Under the pieces are notes generated by a model. That model saw only the letters and a program-made list of their open reading frames with translations. It was not told where the DNA came from and searched no databases. Source: Basidiobolus ranarum (Eukaryota). From it: a DNA stretch of 40,361 nt. Positions within the stretch are counted from its first letter, which is position 1; every line of letters starts with the position of its first letter. The DNA is taken from NCBI GenBank assembly GCA_040143965.1, contig JASJQH010000038.1, positions 1 through 40,361 of the forward strand, in the 5' to 3' direction. Below are positions 3,221-32,700 of this stretch, one piece after another. The position numbers and the translations under genes were made by a program.

Positions 3221-3712
3221 TTAAGCTTCTTCGGTGGCATCAACAGAAGCACGGGTGTAGATGAGTTGGGAACCGTGAGTGGAAACCTTACTGATCAAAC
3301 CTTGAGCTTCGAGTTCTCTGAGAGCAGCGCGAGCAAGAGAACCGTTGATGCGAAGACGATCCACCAAAACTGAAGTGGTGACAAGCTTGTAGGTAGGAGC
3401 TTCTTTCATCAATTTGTCCAAAGTGGCCTGGTCGAAGACAACCAAGTTGTTGGCCTTATCCTTGACCTTTCCTTTAGACCACTTCTTCTTAGTCTTCTTT
3501 CCTCCTGAGGAGGGCTTGGCGGGTGCGTCCTTCTTAGCCTGTAAACGAAGAGGTGTGAGTAAAGATGACTATGTATGCATTCTCTGATACACTCTCTATC
3601 CATCCTTTAATCCATCCATCCATTGAAGATAGATGGGTTAGGGTATGTTGAATGTACTATATCCTATACAGCAGTAAGGATGCATAACACTACAATGTGA
3701 AGAACGTACCAT
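3221..3712 (-). CDS. RPS25: 40S ribosomal protein eS25
   Basis: ATG-only first coding exon (3710-3712), intron 3539-3709, then [43 protein letters not shown]...[11 protein letters not shown]...QLIYTRA. Confidence 0.97.
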
Positions 3713-3877
3713 GTTTGCCGATAGAGAGAAAGATTCTGTGAAACTAGTCAAGTTCTTTTAAAAAATCATCTCGATCTACATCCACCAATCCGAGCAATCT
3801 ATCTGACCAATCAATCCGAGCAATGGGCTATATTCTCATACAATACAGTTAAATTGCTAAGCAAATGAGATTTCATA

Positions 3878-3965
3878 CATAACCTTGACCCTTCCTTAAC
3901 CCTAAATAATGGGAAATTAATGACCTAACCCTCACCATAACCCTCACCATAACCCTCATAACCTT
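3878..3965. promoter_or_regulatory. cluster of telomere-like TAACCCT motifs (candidate Tbf1/telobox sites) in the divergent RPS25-RPL42 promoter
   Basis: ttaaccctaa and cctaaccctcaccataaccctcaccataaccctcataacc. An RTCACRTG match (ATCACATG) lies at 4176-4183. Confidence 0.45.
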
Positions 3966-4320
3966 GCAGCAATGCACTTGCACAGCACTTGACATGTCTT
4001 AGGTTGGTACTCGTCACTATACAAGAGCAAGCAGTTCAGCACAGGACCCTAGAACAAGGAATTGATCACTTCTTGAATGAGTTTAAGTTCTGCATTTGAT
4101 TGAAGGTTGCGCTTAAAGCGGTGGCTAATATATGCATTGATCTCACATCGATCCACCCATGATCCACTTTGATAAATCACATGAAGCCGAGTTTTTTTTA
4201 CCAAGTATAGGGTTTCATATGATTGGTGAGGGAGCCTCGAATTGGATTAAAATTATCACTTTCTGATACAGCAATCCCTCTTTCTCTCCTCATTACCCGT
4301 CCGGTGGTAGTATTGTCAAA

Positions 4321-4762
4321 ATGGTAAGCCATCTACAGAAACGTTGAATCCATCCGTATCAGTATCTAATCATCTCCCACTAGGTCAACATTCCTAAAAC
4401 CAGAAACACTTACTGTAAGGGAAAGGCCTGCCGTAAGCACACTCCCCACAAGGTGACTCAATACAAGACCGGTAAGGCTTCCCTCTTCGCCCAAGGTAAG
4501 CGTCGTTACGACCGTAAACAGTCCGGTTATGGTGGTCAACCCAAGCCCGTCGTCCCCAGGAAGGCCAAGACTACCAAGAAGGTTGTTCTCCGTTTGGAAT
4601 GTACCGTTTGCAAGTACAAGATGCAACTTTCCTTGAAGCGTTGTAAGCACTTCGAACTTGGCGGTGATAAGAAGACCAAGGTAAATGATATTATGTTATG
4701 GTGGCAACCAAATATAGGTATTAAAATGGTTCATTATATAGGGTGCTGCTCTTGTTTTCTAA
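4321..4762 (+). CDS. RPL42: 60S ribosomal protein eL42 (L44/L36a)
   Basis: Exons 4321-4323, 4384-4680 and 4742-4762 give [29 protein letters not shown]...[15 protein letters not shown]...LRLECTVCK...[21 protein letters not shown]. Confidence 0.97.
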
Positions 4763-7643: not shown

Positions 7644-9008
7644 ATGGAGGAAATTGGTATCAAACTCGAGAAACCACAGGTTCGTTTCTTTGCTTGAACT
7701 CTTTCGTATAACCTATTAAACCGAAAACCTTCTTCGCTTTTATTCTACTCTTTAGGAATCAGTCCCCGTTCACCCAAGTGAAACACTTGATACGTTGAAT
7801 GAAGAAGATCTTTATACCAAACTTAAGAAACTTCAACGTCATCTGGAGTTCTTGGAGATTCAGGAAGAATATATTAAAGACGAACAAAAGAACTTGAAGA
7901 GAGAACTCATCCGGGCTCAAGAAGAAGTAAAGAGAATTCAATCGGTTCCTCTGGTTATTGGACAATTTTTGGAACCTATCGATGAGCATACTGGTATTGT
8001 CGGTTCAACCACTGGTTCCAACTATGTTGTACGTATATTGAGTACTATCGATCGTGAACTACTCAAGCCTAGTTCTTCTGTGGCTTTACACAGACACTCC
8101 AACGCTCTGGTGGATGTTCTTCCACCTGAAGCTGATAGTAGCATAGCTTTGTTAAGTGCAGCTGAGAAACCTGATGTTTCCTATGCTGATGTTGGTGGTT
8201 TAGATATTCAAAAGCAGGAAATTCGCGAAGCAGTTGAATTACCTTTGACTCACTTTGATTTATACCGACAAATTGGTATCGACCCACCTCGTGGTGTGCT
8301 TCTCTACGGACCTCCAGGTACCGGTAAAACCATGTTGGTCAAGGCAGTTGCCAATCACACAACCGCTTCGTTCATTCGTGTGGTTGGTTCTGAATTCGTT
8401 CAAAAGTACCTTGGTGAAGGGCCACGAATGGTACGTGACGTCTTCCGTCTAGCCAGAGAGAACTCCCCAGCCATTATCTTTATCGATGAAGTAGATGCTA
8501 TCGCCACTAAGCGGTTCGACGCCCAAACCGGTGCTGATCGTGAAGTTCAACGTATTCTTCTTGAGTTACTGAATCAAATGGACGGTTTCGATCAAAGCTC
8601 TAACATCAAGGTTATCATGGCTACTAATCGTGCAGATACTTTGGATCCTGCATTGTTACGTCCGGGTAGATTGGATCGTAAGATTGAATTCCCTACTCCA
8701 GATCGTCGTCAAAAGCGGTTGATCTTCTCCACAATCACTGGACAAATGAATCTATCCGATGAGGTTGACTTGGAGGATTGTAAGTGAATGTTTGTATAGT
8801 ATTTTTATCTTACACTCACTAATCTCCCCTTTCTGTAGTCGTTTCTCGTCCTGACAAGCTTAGTGGTGCTGATATTGCAGCAATTTGTCAAGAGGCTGGT
8901 ATGCAGGCTGTGCGCAAGAATCGTTATGTGATTCTCAACAAAGACATCGAAAAGGGTTATAAATCCAACGTCAAGAAGACTGATATTGACTTTGAATTCT
9001 ACAAATAA
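7644..9008 (+). CDS. RPT3: 26S proteasome regulatory AAA-ATPase Rpt3 (subunit 6B)
   Basis: Exons 7644-7679, 7756-8779 and 8839-9008. [54 protein letters not shown] and C-terminal FEFYK. Confidence 0.97.
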
Positions 9009-16018: not shown

Positions 16019-17380
16019 TTAATCGGAGAAGAACTCGTCATCGGAATCGTAAACCATGGTGGCAAAGTCAACCTTGTATCTAAGCAAGCCACCAACACCA
16101 CCGAATCCTTTCACGAACTGAGCACCTTCTTGGGAACGGTTGGTAACGAATTCAAGAGTGGCTCCGAAATCCTTATATCTTTCAGCAAACCATTCAAGTA
16201 AAGGCATTTTGTCAGCAACTTCCATTTCAGTGTTGGTTTCAGGGTCCATGAAGTTGGCCTTGTCACCCTCTTGTTCAGGTGTAAGATGCTTGACCTCTTC
16301 TTGACCAGCAGCATTCTTGAAGACATAACGAACAGTTGTTAAGTTCTCCCATACAATCAAAGTCTCAACAGCACCAAGTTCAAGTCCCTTGAGTGTATCG
16401 TCAATACCAAAGCAGTATTTGCCGGTATCTTGAGAAATCTCATCAAAGTACTTTTGAATCAGCTTCTTCTCTTGGATGAACTTGACATTGGCAAGGACTT
16501 CACCAGACAATTCAATAGCCTGGTTGAAACCATTCTCACCACCATAGGATACATCTACCAGCTTGATGATCTTCACTTGAAGTCTTTGATCGAACAACTC
16601 GGATTGAGACAATTCAGTCTTGAAATCAGCTGAACCAGCGAGAACTAGACCAGCAACGTTAGCTTTATCGTTGGTAATGAAGAATTGGACAGCCAATTCA
16701 GCGACCTTTCTCACGTAGTTATGACGCTTTTCTTCACGAAGACGAGCGAAACGAAGAGCGGACTGACCACCTCTACCGTGCTTCTTGGGAAGATCAACAG
16801 AGACCTTGTGAACAATCTCACGAGTATTACCTGAGAGAGTACCGAACAAGGTTCCGTTACCATCCATAACAATAAAACCGAACTTGGAGTCGGATTCCAT
16901 TAACTCGGAAAGAGGTTCAGTGTGGAATTTGTTATCACACAAGTAAAGGGAGGTGTTGATTGGCTTGAAGGGCTCAAAATCAATATTGACCTTCTTTTCT
17001 TTACCCTCATCAGTAAGGATGGTACCACAGTATACAACCAAACCGTTCTCAGGAACTCTGTTATAAAGCTTGAGACGCTGCTGGGTAGAAGTAATAGCAG
17101 CCAATACGGAAAGACGATTAACTCTGCTCTTAATGTTAGAGGCAGTACCATATTCATCTGCAAGCATCTTAGCAGCACGAGAAATTTGATCCTTGGGTGG
17201 AAGAATCAAAGAAATCATGGAAGTACCATTTCTAATGTAAAACAACTTGTGATTAGTGCGTGTAATTACTTACAAAAAATACATAAACACATACCCTCTG
17301 GCGGCTTGAAGATTCTTGATCAATTTCTTAATCTTCCAAATTTCGACATTGCGGTCGGTTTCATTTTCTTGGGACGACAT
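16019..17380 (-). CDS. SUP45: eukaryotic peptide chain release factor 1
   Basis: Exons 17295-17380 and 16019-17231. GTS, TASNIKS, YLCDNKF and GRGGQS motifs are all canonical. Confidence 0.98.
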
Positions 17381-17770: not shown

Positions 17771-17930
17771 GCCCTAACCCCTAACCCATTATATATGCAT
17801 CTTCAAAGCAAAGTGCATAAGACACGTGATTTGGGAATACTTAGCATACATGCAGATATGATTAGCATATACTATAAGCGAAATCCTGGATTGGCAAGAT
17901 GCTCTTATCTATTTTCCTAACCCTAACCTT
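17771..17930. promoter_or_regulatory. telomere-like CCCTAACCC motifs plus a CACGTG box upstream of eRF1
   Basis: gccctaacccctaaccc at 17771, cacgtgat at 17823 and cctaaccctaacc at about 17916. Confidence 0.4.
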
Positions 17931-24471: not shown

Positions 24472-26313
24472 TTAGTTTAACATCTTGGACATATATGGTC
24501 CGTCAAGTTCATATCCTAATTTACGATAGTAGTGACGAGTTCCAACACCTGAAATAACTGCTAGCTTAACACTGCCGTGCTCTTCACGGGCGATTCTCTC
24601 AGCTTCTTCCATTAACAAGGTACCATACCCTTGATGCTGGAACTTGGTAGGATCTCTGTTGTGGATGGGCACCGCTGTACCATACACATGCAATTCTCTA
24701 ACGAGTGAGGACTGGCCGGGTTTAGTCAGCTCAGGTCTGAACGCAGCTTTACTACATTTACGCAAGCGTAACAATCCAATCAAAATGTCTTGCTTGGGAT
24801 CTTCGTAGGAAAGGAATGTCTCCCAGCCACCATTTGCAACATAGTCTCGTCTGATCAATTCTACTTGATCCGGCAAAATCTTGCTATGGATGTCGACAAT
24901 ACCGACTTCTCTGGTTCTAACATCTCGACATTCTGTACCTAAATCCTTCATTCTGTTCAATGCTAGCTCTCTGAGATTTCCGTGCTCCACACCAGACGTA
25001 ACCAACGGCATGGGAATATCTCTTTGCACACGATAAATTCTGGTCCAAGGTGGAACAAGAGCGAGAATTTTGGCAACCAAATCCACTAGAGCATTTGGAG
25101 TATAATTCTTGTAACGTCCGGTACGCCAGAGTTCGTAAAGGCCTGTGCCACGAATTACTAGGGTAGGGTAGATTTTCAATCCATCGGATCTAAAAGCAGG
25201 GTTTTCAAAGTATTCCTGACGTTCAAATAAGTGCTATGATTAATAACTGTGTTATGTGTATGCAACGAATCATTCTCACCTTGAACTGGTCCAAATCACG
25301 TTCCATGCCAACATTAGGTAAATCAGGCATCATATGGGCAACTACTTTGTAACCAGCATCTTTAGCTAATTGGAAAGACTCGCATACGGCACGAACTGTA
25401 TGTCCTCTATTTGTGTCTCTGGCAACATCTTCATAAACACTCTGTACTCCAATCTCTAGACGTGTACATCCATACTTCAGCATTTGACTCAAATGAGGTT
25501 TCAAGCAGTAATCTGGCCGTGTCTCAATAGTGATACCAACACATTTGGTTTGACTCTGTTCTGACATTCTGAGTAGGTTCATTTTTAGTTATGCTTCTAC
25601 TTCATTAAAAAGGTCATACTTATATAGAATACCTGACAGCTTCGTCAACTCCATCACTAGTGTGTCCTGAAAGGGCGTCGTGCATGTTGGCAATAAACCA
25701 ATCACGATAGTCTTCAGGCATTGACATAAAAGTACCACCCATAATAATATATTCAACCTACATAGGAGACTTAATAAGGGGACAATAAAATAGTATGCAT
25801 GGCCAATCTATTTTAACTTACCTTGTCAACACTATGTCCTAAACTTTTCAATTGGTCGACACGACCTCTAGCTTGTTCGAAAGGATTGTAGCGAGCACGA
25901 ATGGCACGCATACTTGTAGGTTCGTAACCAGTGTAAGATTGGGTTGAATATTCAAAATCGGAGTCAGGCCCACCAGGGCAGTAAACACAAATATTTCCGG
26001 TCATAGCAATATGAGGACAACGATGTGGCTTACACATTAGAGCAACAACGGCGATACCAGAGGCGGATCTGACGGGCTTAGCACGAAGCTTTGGTAGTAA
26101 AATCTTCTTGTATTGTTCGGGAATAGCTGCAATGATATCAACTAATTTCGGCTGATTTGCAAGCTTATTCTTGCGTGATATGTTTGTCTTTAAACCATTT
26201 AGATTTACGTTCTTTCCAACCTCATGTGCAGCAACTAATTCGTTCACGATCTCGGCACATGCTTTGACTAATCTTTCCGCTTGGTTAGGACCTTTCTTAC
26301 CTTTTCCAGACAT
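24472..26313 (-). CDS. ELP3: Elongator complex catalytic subunit Elp3 (radical SAM plus acetyltransferase)
   Basis: [45 protein letters not shown] and [11 protein letters not shown] motifs; three introns. Confidence 0.98.
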
Positions 26314-26744
26314 GGTATTGTTTATAATCGAGCAATTACTACTCTAACTATACTTTGTAGGGGAATATCAAGTCAAGAATACTGAGAATGGAGTGTGTAG
26401 AATAAATTTGATTCCAATTGCACTGGTTTTTTTTTCTTTTCAATTTTTCTGTGAAATGATTAGTATTTAAATCAAAGTAGTATGTTAGTTTTGTTTATCT
26501 TGACCAATTTAATCGAGCTTCCACTGCAACCTTATTAAATTTAAGAAACCATTCTTGGTCTTCCGATTTCGGGATGCGATGCTGAAATTAGTAACCCGTT
26601 TATAATTAATTGTTCAATTTAAGTTAAACAGTCTTGCGACCACACGTGGTAACTATCGCATTTAGCAAGGTTTCAAGTATTGGTCAATGTTACAGAGGCT
26701 TTGTTAGATATTTCAACACATAGGCCATCTCTCCTAGTTATTCT

Positions 26745-29700
26745 ATGGTTTTTTCCAGAGAAAAACGGCATCATGACAGAATACAACCACCTTTAAGCGA
26801 TGCAAATTCCTTTGTTTCTTTTGATTCGTTGGGGTACGATTCGGAGGGTGGAGACTCGGGAGTTATTTCCAAGATTTTCAACCGAGTTAAAAGTTCTTTG
26901 AATAATGCTTCTGTATCGAGTCTAAACATTAGCCATGATAGTGGTTCAAACTTCTATCAGGTACCTTCTATGCATTCAAATATCTCAGTAACATCCACCA
27001 CATCTATACCTGATAGTAAGGGAGAAGCTTTAACACAAGAAAAAGGTAATATTTTTGACGATGCATCTTCCGTGATAATAAAAGCCTTTATCGTGCCAAG
27101 GTCGGACGTAGAATCGGAATTGGAACTCGGTGAGGAGCCTCCTAGCCACCCTAGGACCAAGCAGTTACAGGTTACAAATAAAAGCTCTTTCAGTAATATA
27201 GTAAGGCGTTTGCGCGGAGAAGGTATCAATAAAGATTATTGGATGAAAGATGACCACTGCAAAGAGTGCTATGAATGCAAGGATCCATTTACTACCTTCA
27301 GAAGAAAGCATCATTGTCGTATTTGTGGTAAATACTAGAATATTTTCAGAGATAACTAATGTATATTTGACAGCAATATTCTCTTGATATTAATACCATT
27401 ATTACTTTTTCTGTTATAGGACAGATATTTTGTTCCAAATGCTCGTCCAAAATTATTCCTGGCGAACGCTTCGGTTATCCTGGATTGATGAGGGTTTGCA
27501 ACTATTGTTCTTCTCTCATCAGCACTGAATACCCACAAGATCATGAATCATTGGATAGCAGTTCCATCGAGGAGCCTTCAGTATCTCCTCCATCCGCACC
27601 TCTCCCTATTCTATTATGTTCCTCGGATACCTCAGAGAACGCCCCAAGTTTGTCGACACAAGCACTTGCAACATCTATTTCTAATCCACCAAAGTTACTA
27701 AGCCGGAAACTTTCGTTCTTGGCACCCCCAGCACATGTTACTTTACCAAACTCTATCACCCCTACTGTAGCCTTAAGCAATGCCGAGCCAACGGCCACAT
27801 ATGCTCTGAGCTCACTAATAGATGCAAGTTCAGTGGAAGGGTTTAAAAGAATGCTATCTGGAGGCGCGAATATCTTTAATAGGTCAAGGGCCAATACATT
27901 TTCCGAAGAGTCTGGCAATGATACCAATTTCTTAGCCCCATTTCATAATCATACAGCAGAGTACGCAAAGTACACCGGCTTGGTCGACCCAAATCTCCTA
28001 ATTGATCCCGAAATTGCGCCTTTTATGAGTGATGATGAGGATGAATCTCCATTTGACTCATGGATTACTATACCGGCGAATTTTGTTCCAACCGAAGCAC
28101 AGATGCTCGAGTTCTCTCCAGAAATTGGTTCGGTCTGTACTACTCCAATCCCAATTAATGAAGGACAAGCTGGAGAGGATGATTCTTTAGATATGAGCTC
28201 AATGTCATATCCGGTCTATAACAATAAGGAGAAACCGTCAAGAGGCAACTTCAACAGAGATAAGGCGACACATCCCAACCACAATTCACCTCTTTGGAGA
28301 TCGCGTAGTCCTAGCTTTCATTCTAAACTAAAGCCAAGGAATTTTATGGGAAGCAATAATGGGCATCCACATTGGAGTAAAGGGCACAGACATCATCAAC
28401 GAGTGAATTCTACGCCTGTTAATGTGGAGATAAACGCTGCCTCGCTTCAGCATATTAGAAAATTGTTACTACAAACGCTCAATGAGTTAGAGGCGGATGT
28501 GCGTGAGGGTTGGGAGCAAGTACTGATGAAATTCTTCTTGAAACTTTCAGATAGCGTTCGCCCCAATGTTAGATCAGGTGATGACATCGACATTAGAAAT
28601 TACATAAAAATCAAAAAAATCCCAGGTGGCTCACCGGCAGACTGCGAATATGTTAATGGCTTTGTTTGCACCAAGAATTTAGCACATAAGAGAATGCCGC
28701 GTATACTAAAGAATCCGAGAATCATGATACTTACTTTCTCTTTGGAGTACCATCGAGTGGATAATCAATACTTATCGCTGGAACCGGTGTTGGCACAGGA
28801 GAGAGAGCATCTCAAAAATTTAGTAGCGAGAGTAGTTGCGCTAAGACCTACACTTATCATCGTAGAAAAAAGTGTCTCAAGATTGGCGCTGGAATTTCTT
28901 ATGAAAGCAAATGTTGCAGTAGCGTTCAACGTCAAGCCTACGGTAGTCCAAACAATAGCAAGATTTACTAGAGCAGATGTCATTTCATCGATCGACAAAT
29001 TATCACTTGAGCCGCGCCTAGGTAGATGTGGTACATTCAGTTTACGTACATTTGCCCATGAATTGATAGCAGGCAAGAAGAAAACTTTCATGTTCTTTGA
29101 AGAGTGTCCTAAAGAGCTTGGATGTAGTATTATACTTAGAGGAGGAAACATGGATATGCTTAGCAAGATCAAACAACTTACCAACCTTATGGCATTTGTC
29201 GCATTTAATCTCAAGCTGGAGTCTTGCTTGTTAAGAGATCAATTCGCTTTAAATCCAGTAGTTAATTCTGAGACAGAGAGACTATTCAACTCTCGCCAAC
29301 AAGAGGAATCTGAGGCCATGATTACAGTGATTGGTGACGATGCCGAGACTGTAGATGATGAACTAGTCTCGAACATCTCTATCGACCAAATCATTGCTGC
29401 CATCAAGCCTTTCGAAACCAAGATTTTATCTGCTTCACCTTTCGTCAAATTTCCCCTCCCTTATCTTCTGTCTACTATGAGAGATGATGCTCTCAAACTG
29501 ATTGCGTTAAAGAGAATCCGAAAGAATCAAGATGTTACTTCCGCTCACTTGATCAAGATTTTTTCGGAGGAAGAGCAAGGGCGTATCCGAAACATGACTG
29601 ATATCGACTACAGGGATCTCATACAAGAGTATATATCTAACATCAACGCAGGAGAAAATTATTTAATGTCCAATAATTTCGATATTTCGCCATTTGCTCA

Positions 29701-32700
29701 CCAAAATATTCTAGTGTTGTATTTTAATATTTGCAAAGAGAATACTACACCCTGCCAGGCACCGGAAATTCATCCCATAGAATATTATCGTAAAACTGAT
29801 GTCACTTTGGGCCAATATCTGGAGGAATTGTGCTTCGATTCAAACTACGTTTGTCCATCTTCAGACTGCGATAAGCCTCTTAAACTTCATTTCCGAAGCT
29901 ATGCTCATGGAGATGCTAGGGTTACTGTTAAAATAGAGGATTCTGAATCAAGAATGCCAGGTATCGACCAAACGATTTTGATGTGGAGTCACTGTAAGAT
30001 ATGTAAAAAGGATACCCCTGTGGTGCCAATGTCGGAAGAAACCTGGAACATCTCCTTTGGAAAGTATATGGAATTAACATTCTACCGTAAAGACCTGAGT
30101 TGCCGTGCCGGTATATGTCCACACAACATTCATCGAGAACACATTCGTTTATTTGCTTTGAGTAACTTGGTAGTCAGGTTTGAATACGAACCTATTGAGC
30201 TCTTAGAGTTGGAAGTGCCCTCGATTGAGTTGAAGTTTAAATCGGATGTCAACATTAGTTTGAAAAACGACGACATCGAAAAGCTTCGAATCGATATTGT
30301 AAAATACTGGGATTCCGTGGCAGAGAGACTAAAAACTGTCACATATGAAAATGTAACGGCTAGTAAATTGGAGGCGTGTAAGCAAGAGATCGGAGAGATG
30401 ATTCAAAAAATGGTTGCTGAGAAAACCTACTTCTTACAAATGTTGCAGCAAACTTACGATGAAAGTCTACCGACCGATACGATGACTCTGAACGAGGTGG
30501 TTCGTATCTTACAAGAAAAGGTGATCGAGTGGGATGAAGACTTTAGTGAAATGGCGACGAAATATTTCCCAGCCGATAGAAAGCTGTCCACTGCTCAGTT
30601 CAAAAAACTGTTCCCAGAAAAGGAATTTACCATCAATGGGTTAGAGTCACTTAGAGGTACTCTGAGTAAAGATTTCGGCCTGGACGGGACTACTCTTATG
30701 GTAACTGGCCAGCCCGAAGAATACTTCAAACCGAAACTACTACCTCTTCTGGGATCGTCCCCTACTTCATCTGAGTTTCAATCTAGTGGAGAGACTTTTA
30801 ATGATATTGAGTCTCCGGAAAGCAACAATTATGAAACTGATAATATGGTTTTCTCTTCACTAAGTCGACCACTTTATCGTAAATACTCTTTACAGATGAT
30901 GAGGGAATTTAAGGAGCAACAGCGCACATTACAGAGACCGAAGTTGATATCCCAAGGGTCCCACTCTCTAACTTCTGGAAACTCGAAACCTCGATTGGAT
31001 AGGAATGAAAGTGGATCAAATATATCTCAACGTTCTGGTCCATCTTCCATAGCCCCTGTCAAGGCAAGTGATTCTCCCAATCAAGCAACCACGGATACAG
31101 CGATTCTTTCACAATCTGCACCACAACGTATATCTCGCCTATTGAACCCCACGAAGTCTACCGCTGCAAAGTTCCACAATATTACTGAGAAAGTTAGCCG
31201 TTTGGAGAAATTACGCCCTAGAAGTAATAAAGGAGAAGGACTGAAGGATAAGAAAGGTAATCTGGATAGATCCAACAACCCCAAGCTTCCGATGCTCCAA
31301 ACTCGTATCGCTTCTACTGGATTTGACAAGCAAAGAATCGTTGATAGGCTCTTAAGCAAAGTACAGCCGCTTACCAGAAGCTCAAGTGTCAAAAGAGTTG
31401 GTAAGCCGGTCATTGAGGTCTACTCTAATGCCAAAGACGCAGTCACCGAAGACTCAGACGATGAGTATGAGATAAGCTCTGGTAGAAGGAAAAAAGACAA
31501 GGTTAATGAAGGAGTACACCCTTTCTCGTTGACTCGTCCTGATGCCTTTGATGCCTCTTTAGGCGATGAGGATTATTATCCTCATTCTGGTCGGTCATCC
31601 CTTGAAGAATTTATCTATGATGGCGCATTGACTTTCTTAGGAAAAGAAGGAGACTTTCCACCTCCGTCCCCTCCACGTTCGCCTTATCCTTTGGATGCTT
31701 ATTCTGATAGGACGCATAGTCCATCACCTAGTGATATACAAGGAAGCTCCTTGACCAGTATACCCTCAAATCATTTACAGATCGATAACGAGCTACCCGG
31801 CACTGCTGAAAGATTGTCCTTGATGAAAACCATCACCAATTTCTGGGGAGTAGGAAATTCAGCCAATTTTCAACCTTTAGAATACCCTTTGTAAGTATAG
31901 TTTATTCTCTAAATTACTCTACTGCAGAAAGTCCGTTTTATTGACAAGTCTATTGCACCCAGGATTCCCACAGAACATATATTTCCTGACTCCTTAATTA
32001 TTGTTCGTGAAGATGAGCCTAGTTCCATTATTGCGTTTACCTTGAGGTATTACATTAATTTGGTAGTATATATATCTACTCTGAACTAACAATATACATT
32101 GGTTAATTTAGTTCTAGGGATTACAAGGATAAACTGGAATCAATGTTGAGGAATCAAAACCTACGGGATTCATATGTGGATCAAGGTGATTCTGATTGCG
32201 AAGAAGTTTTCGAACTTAATGACGCTAGTGATATGAATGGAGATCATAACTCTATCCCAGATATTGAAGAAACGTTATTGAGACCTACCGGAACACACAT
32301 CAAATATCGTAAGTTGACTAAATCTGCTTCCGAGTATTTTAACAGTCAAAGTTGACACTTTATTTTGAATATATAGAATTCTCGGAAGGCTCAACCACAC
32401 TATTTTGTAAAATCTTCTACGCTGAACAATTCGACGCTCTCAGAAGACAATGTGGATGTGAGGAAACCTACCTAGAATCTTTGGCTCGTTGTGTTAAATG
32501 GTCAGCTACTGGCGGAAAATCAGGGTCCGCTTTTTTGAAAACTAGAGATGATCGATTGATTATGAAGCAAATGTCACGTTCAGAAATGGATGCATTCTTG
32601 AAATTTGCACCCTATTACTTTGAATACTTATCAAAGGCATTCTTTCATGAGGTATTTCTCAAAGGCTCAGCATCCGACTAGACTTAGTACCATTTACTTA

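Follow-up and report, generated by a model that had tools for sequence, protein, structure and literature searches.

One of the questions raised by the eL42 gene of the gut fungus Basidiobolus ranarum is whether an unusual loop in a very conserved ribosomal protein is a functional remodeling, the damage of a spare copy or an error of sequencing. The eL42 loop forms one wall of the pocket in which translation inhibitors such as cycloheximide, lactimidomycin, lissoclimides and their relatives act, and natural variation in this pocket loop has so far been essentially that of one residue, P56Q. In the 40,361-nucleotide stretch of B. ranarum DNA that was analyzed here (contig JASJQH010000038.1; hereafter the window), the first-pass annotation had flagged the eL42 range from G51 to A62 (4531-4566, forward strand) as a possible inhibitor-resistant or specialized allele or paralog with four clustered substitutions. 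If such a loop is functional, the pocket wall would tolerate far more remodeling than has been thought, the loop would give a new handle on the contacts that are important for each inhibitor class, and nature would have supplied an example of ribosomes that differ at a functional center according to the paralog they contain. Should the loop instead belong to a damaged spare copy or be an error, it has little consequence beyond caution in annotation.

The eL42 gene and its neighbor

The eL42 gene (4321-4762, forward strand) has three exons and 106 codons and belongs to the L44e/L36a family (PF00935). Exon 1 is the start codon ATG alone (4321-4323), with GTAAGC directly after it, and intron 1 (4324-4383, 60 nt) runs from GT to AG with an in-frame TAG at its 3′ end. 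Exon 2 (4384-4680, 297 nt) encodes residues 2-100 (P0001) and was identified by its translation. In a Pfam profile search it matched PF00935 at E 9.1e-35 over profile positions 1-76 of 76, and 58 solved eL42/L44e sequences were matched at E up to 1e-5, the best chains at E 7e-52. Intron 2 (4681-4741, 61 nt), again GT to AG, is followed by exon 3 (4742-4762, 21 nt), which encodes GAALVF and the stop codon TAA; the same C-terminus is found in the database proteins P0003, P0004, P0006 and P0008. The reading frame is intact, and so are the start codon, the splice sites and the C-terminus. A processed retro-copy pseudogene was considered for this locus and rejected, since the gene has two GT..AG introns and an open frame of 106 codons.

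The translation contains the zinc-ribbon cysteines C12, C17, C74 and C77, as well as Y43, GGQ at 51-53, K55 and P56, while the family-typical T54, F58, basic residue 59 and K60 are absent and replaced by P, V, P and R. The gene thus has the family and the length of canonical eL42 (S. cerevisiae Rpl42A/B and human RPL36A; 80S structures such as 4u3u and 7pzy), keeps the zinc-ribbon, Y43, GGQ, K55 and P56 residues of these proteins and matches solved chains at E of about 1e-50. It differs from them in that it stands alone with P54, V58 and P59 (0 of 315 relatives) and has R60 (2 of 315). Judged by its sequence, the protein is within the eL42 family in spite of the loop anomaly.

The gene also has indirect marks of activity. 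Its GC3 is 0.58, compared with 0.50 in eS25 and 0.31-0.43 in five non-ribosomal window genes, and Lys is encoded by AAG at 19 of 21 positions and Arg by CGT at 6 of 8, with TTC for all three Phe and CAC for all three His. This bias is of the type of highly expressed genes, and by this measure the gene looks active. Head-to-head with eL42 lies an eS25 gene (3221-3712, reverse strand; PF03297, E 6e-42), with its ATG at 3712-3710, an intron at 3709-3539 and an exon at 3538-3221. In both genes the intron comes straight after the ATG, so that exon 1 is only the start codon.

The variant loop and its rarity

Codons 54-60 (4540-4560, forward strand) read CCC AAG CCC GTC GTC CCC AGG, which gives PKPVVPR instead of the usual TKPVFHK; in relatives the 11-residue loop is GGQTKPVFHKK. 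The four substitutions first called in this loop, T54P, F58V, H59P and K60R, are therefore confirmed at the level of the codons.

The rarity of these residues was analyzed in 315 eL42 proteins, all of which align across the loop. The set was gathered from the best 120 of 3250 matches in a 90%-clustered protein database, the best 120 of 1229 matches in a search limited to residues 34-78 and the best 150 of 2092 matches among 50% representatives. Position 54, which is P in the window gene, is T in 314 proteins and S in one; position 58, V in the window gene, is F in 314 and H in one. At position 59, where the window gene has P, there are 283 H, 28 R and 4 K, and at position 60 there are 313 K and only 2 R, the residue of the window gene. 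Across exon 2 the four loop changes are the sole residues that are present in less than 2% of the other proteins (n=315). For four to five random changes, the probability that four of them fall inside 7 of 106 residues is 4e-4 to 2e-3. In the search with residues 34-78, none of the matches listed went above 91% identity over 45 residues, which corresponds to the four loop mismatches.

In the protein databases each 90% cluster appears as a single representative (the cluster of P0003, the second B. ranarum protein described below, has 9 members), and because of this a near relative that shares the loop could have stayed out of sight, as could the product of the window gene itself and further copies from Basidiobolus. 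The top-scoring database match, P0002 (an ENA protein of 148 aa), is a yeast-type eL42 model in which the loop region is partly duplicated internally; its score is inflated because of this duplication, and the record is probably mis-assembled or mis-called.

When the 13-residue peptide of the loop was turned into a degenerate DNA pattern and sought in metagenome contigs, there were 0 matches. It was also found that P54, V58 and P59 are absent from the 75 loop readings taken from the 80 metagenome eL42 loci that were kept, all of which have an identity of 88% or less. These readings contain other variants. Q56 is found in 5 of the 75 (L021, L025, L029, L033 and L040), none of them similar to the window loop, and one locus, L049, reads PILRM at 56-60, that is F58L, H59R and K60M. 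Such loops indicate that variants besides P56Q exist in uncultured eukaryotes. A search of the whole window for a second eL42 copy found none, and when a DNA donor of the loop was sought across the window at up to 3 mismatches, the loop itself was the sole match.

A second eL42 locus in B. ranarum

The best named eL42 match is P0003, a protein labelled B. ranarum and encoded on another contig (24751 bp). Its loop is GGQTRPVFHKK, with K55R as the sole change, and R at position 55 is found in 5 of the 315 eL42 proteins. The annotated 5′ extension of P0003 has no counterpart upstream of the window eL42, which indicates that P0003 is a different locus, and B. ranarum has at least two eL42 loci. 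The initial suggestion of an allele or a paralog gains support in its paralog part, as the species carries a further eL42, on another contig, whose loop is close to canonical. The extension adds 21 residues ahead of the canonical Met and is probably the product of a gene model drawn too long.

The two proteins are identical at 93 of 99 exon-2 residues and have the same C-terminus. The six residues that differ are position 18 (R18K, with K18 in P0003) and positions 54, 55, 58, 59 and 60. That five of six differences should fall within the seven residues 54-60 has a chance of about 8e-5, so both copies stray from near-invariant residues of the same loop. The B. ranarum genome is reported to be very large and at least diploid, and the organism is reported to keep overlapping translation-factor genes (PMC3281927).

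Base changes and sequence quality

The ancestral codons were inferred from the gene's own usage elsewhere (ACC or ACT for T, TTC for F, CAC for H and AAG for K). On this basis the changes are ACC to CCC, TTC to GTC, CAC to CCC and AAG to AGG, each of them one base away from the usual codon, as had been claimed, and all within 20 bases. All four inferred changes go from A/T to C/G, and three of the four are A:T to C:G transversions. Such a one-sided pattern is not what selection alone would predict and suggests instead a bias of mutation or of technique; it fits a clustered mutational event, GC-biased conversion or Illumina sequence-specific errors. A to C and T to G changes are the commonest class of Illumina sequence-specific errors near GGC-type motifs. 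The R60 codon is the one AGG among the 8 Arg codons of the gene, which suggests a recent change. A compensated frameshift was rejected by inspection: the observed and the expected 30-base stretches have the same length and are four substitutions apart.

Two highly conserved genes of the window were used as quality controls. In eRF1, 3 scattered conservative departures (L to M, D to E and I to V) were found across about 191 near-invariant columns in comparison with 119 relatives; three more apparent departures are intron read-through at the start of the frame. In Rpt3, the differences from human Rpt3 are scattered and mostly conservative, with no radical cluster. From these clean controls it follows that the eL42 cluster is not part of a general local garbling of the sequence.

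The loop in the E-site pocket

The first-pass annotation held that the loop borders the E-site drug pocket, that P56Q gives resistance and that K55 is a methylation site, and the literature agrees with it in all three. Cycloheximide is located in the 60S E-site pocket, 3.1 Å from eL42 P56, and the natural cycloheximide resistance of C. albicans was explained by a clash of Q56 with the glutarimide group of the drug (PMC9132455). In C. elegans, the engineered RPL-36A(P55Q) change gives resistance that is partly dominant in heterozygotes and dose-dependent when sensitive and resistant ribosomes coexist (PMC12477835). Phyllanthoside shifts the K55-K60 backbone and stacks on Y43 (PMC9132455), and chlorolissoclimide forms hydrogen bonds with the backbone of P56 and F58 (PMC6451132; PMC12012676). 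The human counterpart of K55 is a methylated lysine and forms part of the pocket; the counterpart of K61 is in contact with lactimidomycin at its lactone ring, and eL42 is also contacted by eIF5A (PMC10156603). The penultimate C of the tRNA in the E site is held in position by Y43 (PMC10123126), and this E-site role is also described in PMC9132455. A side observation is that with K55R, P0003 has lost a lysine that in other species is methylated and lies close to the drug.

The known resistance type is the Q-type eL42/L41 of K. lactis, C. maltosa and C. albicans (P56Q), which is, like the window loop, a natural change in the E-site loop. In the window gene, position 56 is CCC (Pro, 4546-4548), neither Gln nor any other non-Pro residue, so that P56 is retained as first noted and the window eL42 is not of the known P56Q type; instead of the one change to Gln56 there are four flanking changes. 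In C. maltosa, sensitive and variant eL42 copies coexist in one organism. This likeness extends to B. ranarum, with P0003 and the window gene.

The statement that changes of F58 are reported resistance alleles found no support: in the literature searched, a Neurospora structure study aside, there is no report of F58 as a cycloheximide-resistance allele. The sole F58 allele found there is S. pombe rpl42(G51S, F58S), a growth suppressor allele that is viable (PMC9367792). Together with the metagenome locus L049, this allele indicates that a residue other than F at position 58 is possible in an eL42 that is viable or found in nature. Both differ from the window gene in having other substitutions, no proline at 54 or 59 and no link to a drug response. 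As for the organism itself, two case reports grew Basidiobolus on cycloheximide-free medium or recommended such a medium; neither report tested resistance, and they give no sign of it at the level of the organism.

Possible explanations for the variant loop

The explanation that we tentatively prefer is that the window gene is a real paralog with a remodeled E-site loop, which enters some of the ribosomes and probably alters the binding of inhibitors or of the tRNA end. It builds on the sequence itself, its rarity, the second locus, the concentration of the differences between the copies in the loop and the marks of an active ribosomal-protein gene. The viable F58 allele of S. pombe, the PILRM loop in a metagenome and the partly dominant allele of the worm also count in its favor, as do the clean quality controls, the drug contacts of the loop and the reported large genome with its overlapping translation-factor genes. 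Against it are that the changes are drastic, with two prolines gained and the nearly invariant T54 and F58 lost, that P56, the sole residue with proven natural resistance variants, is unchanged, that all inferred base changes go from A/T to C/G, and that Basidiobolus appears in the case reports with cycloheximide-free medium.

The main rival, which we consider possible but somewhat unlikely, is that a real clustered mutation or a short conversion tract damaged one of the redundant eL42 genes. The copy would then persist since others supply working eL42, as an incipient pseudogene or a poorly used subunit, and its loop would be non-adaptive. The presence of at least two eL42 loci fits this explanation, as does the reported very large, at least diploid genome with duplicated translation genes (PMC3281927). 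The residues that were hit include T54 and F58, each conserved in 314 of 315 proteins, and two prolines were brought in; given this near-invariance and such drastic replacements, the copy may simply be impaired. Four A/T to C/G changes within 20 bases are what a single mutational event gives, and the lone AGG codon also suits a recent change. However, there is no stop, frameshift, splice defect or other rare residue in exon 2, and the K55R of P0003 means that these seven residues were struck twice, independently, and the remainder only once, which is not expected for random damage. The codon bias is also fully kept, but it would be after a recent event too; had all four changes come about together in such an event, nothing about function could be read from the intact remainder of the gene.

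Another hypothesis is that the true codons are canonical and that the four differences come from read errors, or from a consensus built on few reads or on mixed reads of the paralogs. We regard such an artefact as unlikely. The direction of the changes speaks for it: each of the four turns A or T into C or G, three of them as A to C or T to G, and a GGCC lies just downstream on the opposite strand. In addition, both B. ranarum copies have ultra-rare residues in the same stretch while there are almost none in the other 313 proteins, which is the picture that a context-dependent error would give, and odd residues in the same context in both copies make an artefact somewhat more plausible; the absence of the loop pattern from metagenome contigs points the same way. 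Yet it would be unusual for four errors of the consensus to crowd into 20 bases on a contig of 40 kb, the highly conserved eRF1 and Rpt3 genes of the window have no such clusters, and the changes differ between the two eL42 copies.

It could also be thought that the gene is a self-resistance target copy that guards the fungus from an E-site inhibitor of its own making, which we find highly improbable. Producers of inhibitors carry duplicated, insensitive target genes, and this general precedent together with the altered pocket loop is the only support for it. The neighborhood is that of a housekeeping region and disfavors it. The 40-kb window contains eRF1 (16022-17269, reverse strand), Rpt3 (7756-8784, forward), Elp3 (24475-26343, reverse) and a Fab1/PIKfyve-like kinase (27371-31891, forward), besides eS25, MoaC, a porin, kinesin, kinases, a phosphodiesterase and ubiquitin. 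Of the 55 ORFs of at least 90 codons, 43 were scanned, and none of them had a polyketide, non-ribosomal peptide, terpene, P450 or transporter domain, the 12 unscanned ORFs being ones that overlap longer assigned ORFs or are eL42 itself. The spacer of eL42 is also common to eS25, as in an ordinary ribosomal-protein gene.

How a remodeled loop may act

Under the preferred explanation of a remodeled paralog, T54P, F58V, H59P and K60R would remodel the loop tip, which is the protein wall of the 60S E-site pocket, and the zinc ribbon, Y43 (which stacks on the tRNA's CCA terminus), GGQ, K55 and P56 are unchanged. The variant eL42 may be built into a share of the ribosomes, where the pocket wall would be reshaped by the two prolines gained and by the absence of both the F58 ring and a basic residue at 59. 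This may weaken the binding of E-site ligands that lean on residues 55-61, such as glutarimides with bulky side groups (lactimidomycin), lissoclimide-type compounds and perhaps cycloheximide by way of a shifted P56. The way in which the end of the deacylated tRNA or eIF5A is held might change as well. Because a near-canonical copy coexists, the ribosome population would be mixed and tolerance would be partial and dose-dependent. Inhibitor resistance from this loop is purely what we infer from sequence, as is each step beyond the sequence being real.

A broader and rather doubtful possibility is that Basidiobolus ribosomes are heterogeneous, with the E-site loops of the paralogs diverged under selection, K55R in one and T54P, F58V, H59P and K60R in the other. 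This would be a natural multi-residue route to tolerance of E-site inhibitors made by gut and soil actinomycetes, distinct from the single P56Q switch of yeasts, and it may also tune tRNA release or the use of eIF5A.

The spacer between eS25 and eL42

The divergent start codons of eS25 and eL42 are separated by a spacer of 608 bp (3713-4320), which is presumed to be a shared promoter. An eS25 gene beside eL42 was also sought in the 80 metagenome eL42 loci, with no match. In the middle of the spacer, a motif count found four TAACCCT telomere-repeat-like motifs within 60 bp (3897-3956, forward strand). Window-wide the motif is not above chance, with 7 found and 4.8 expected, and the local clustering alone is notable; one further TAACCCT lies at 17918, upstream of the eRF1 gene. 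TAACCCT-like motifs mark ribosomal-protein promoters in plants and in many fungi. Judging from their position here, these motifs could be a promoter element of translation-machinery genes.
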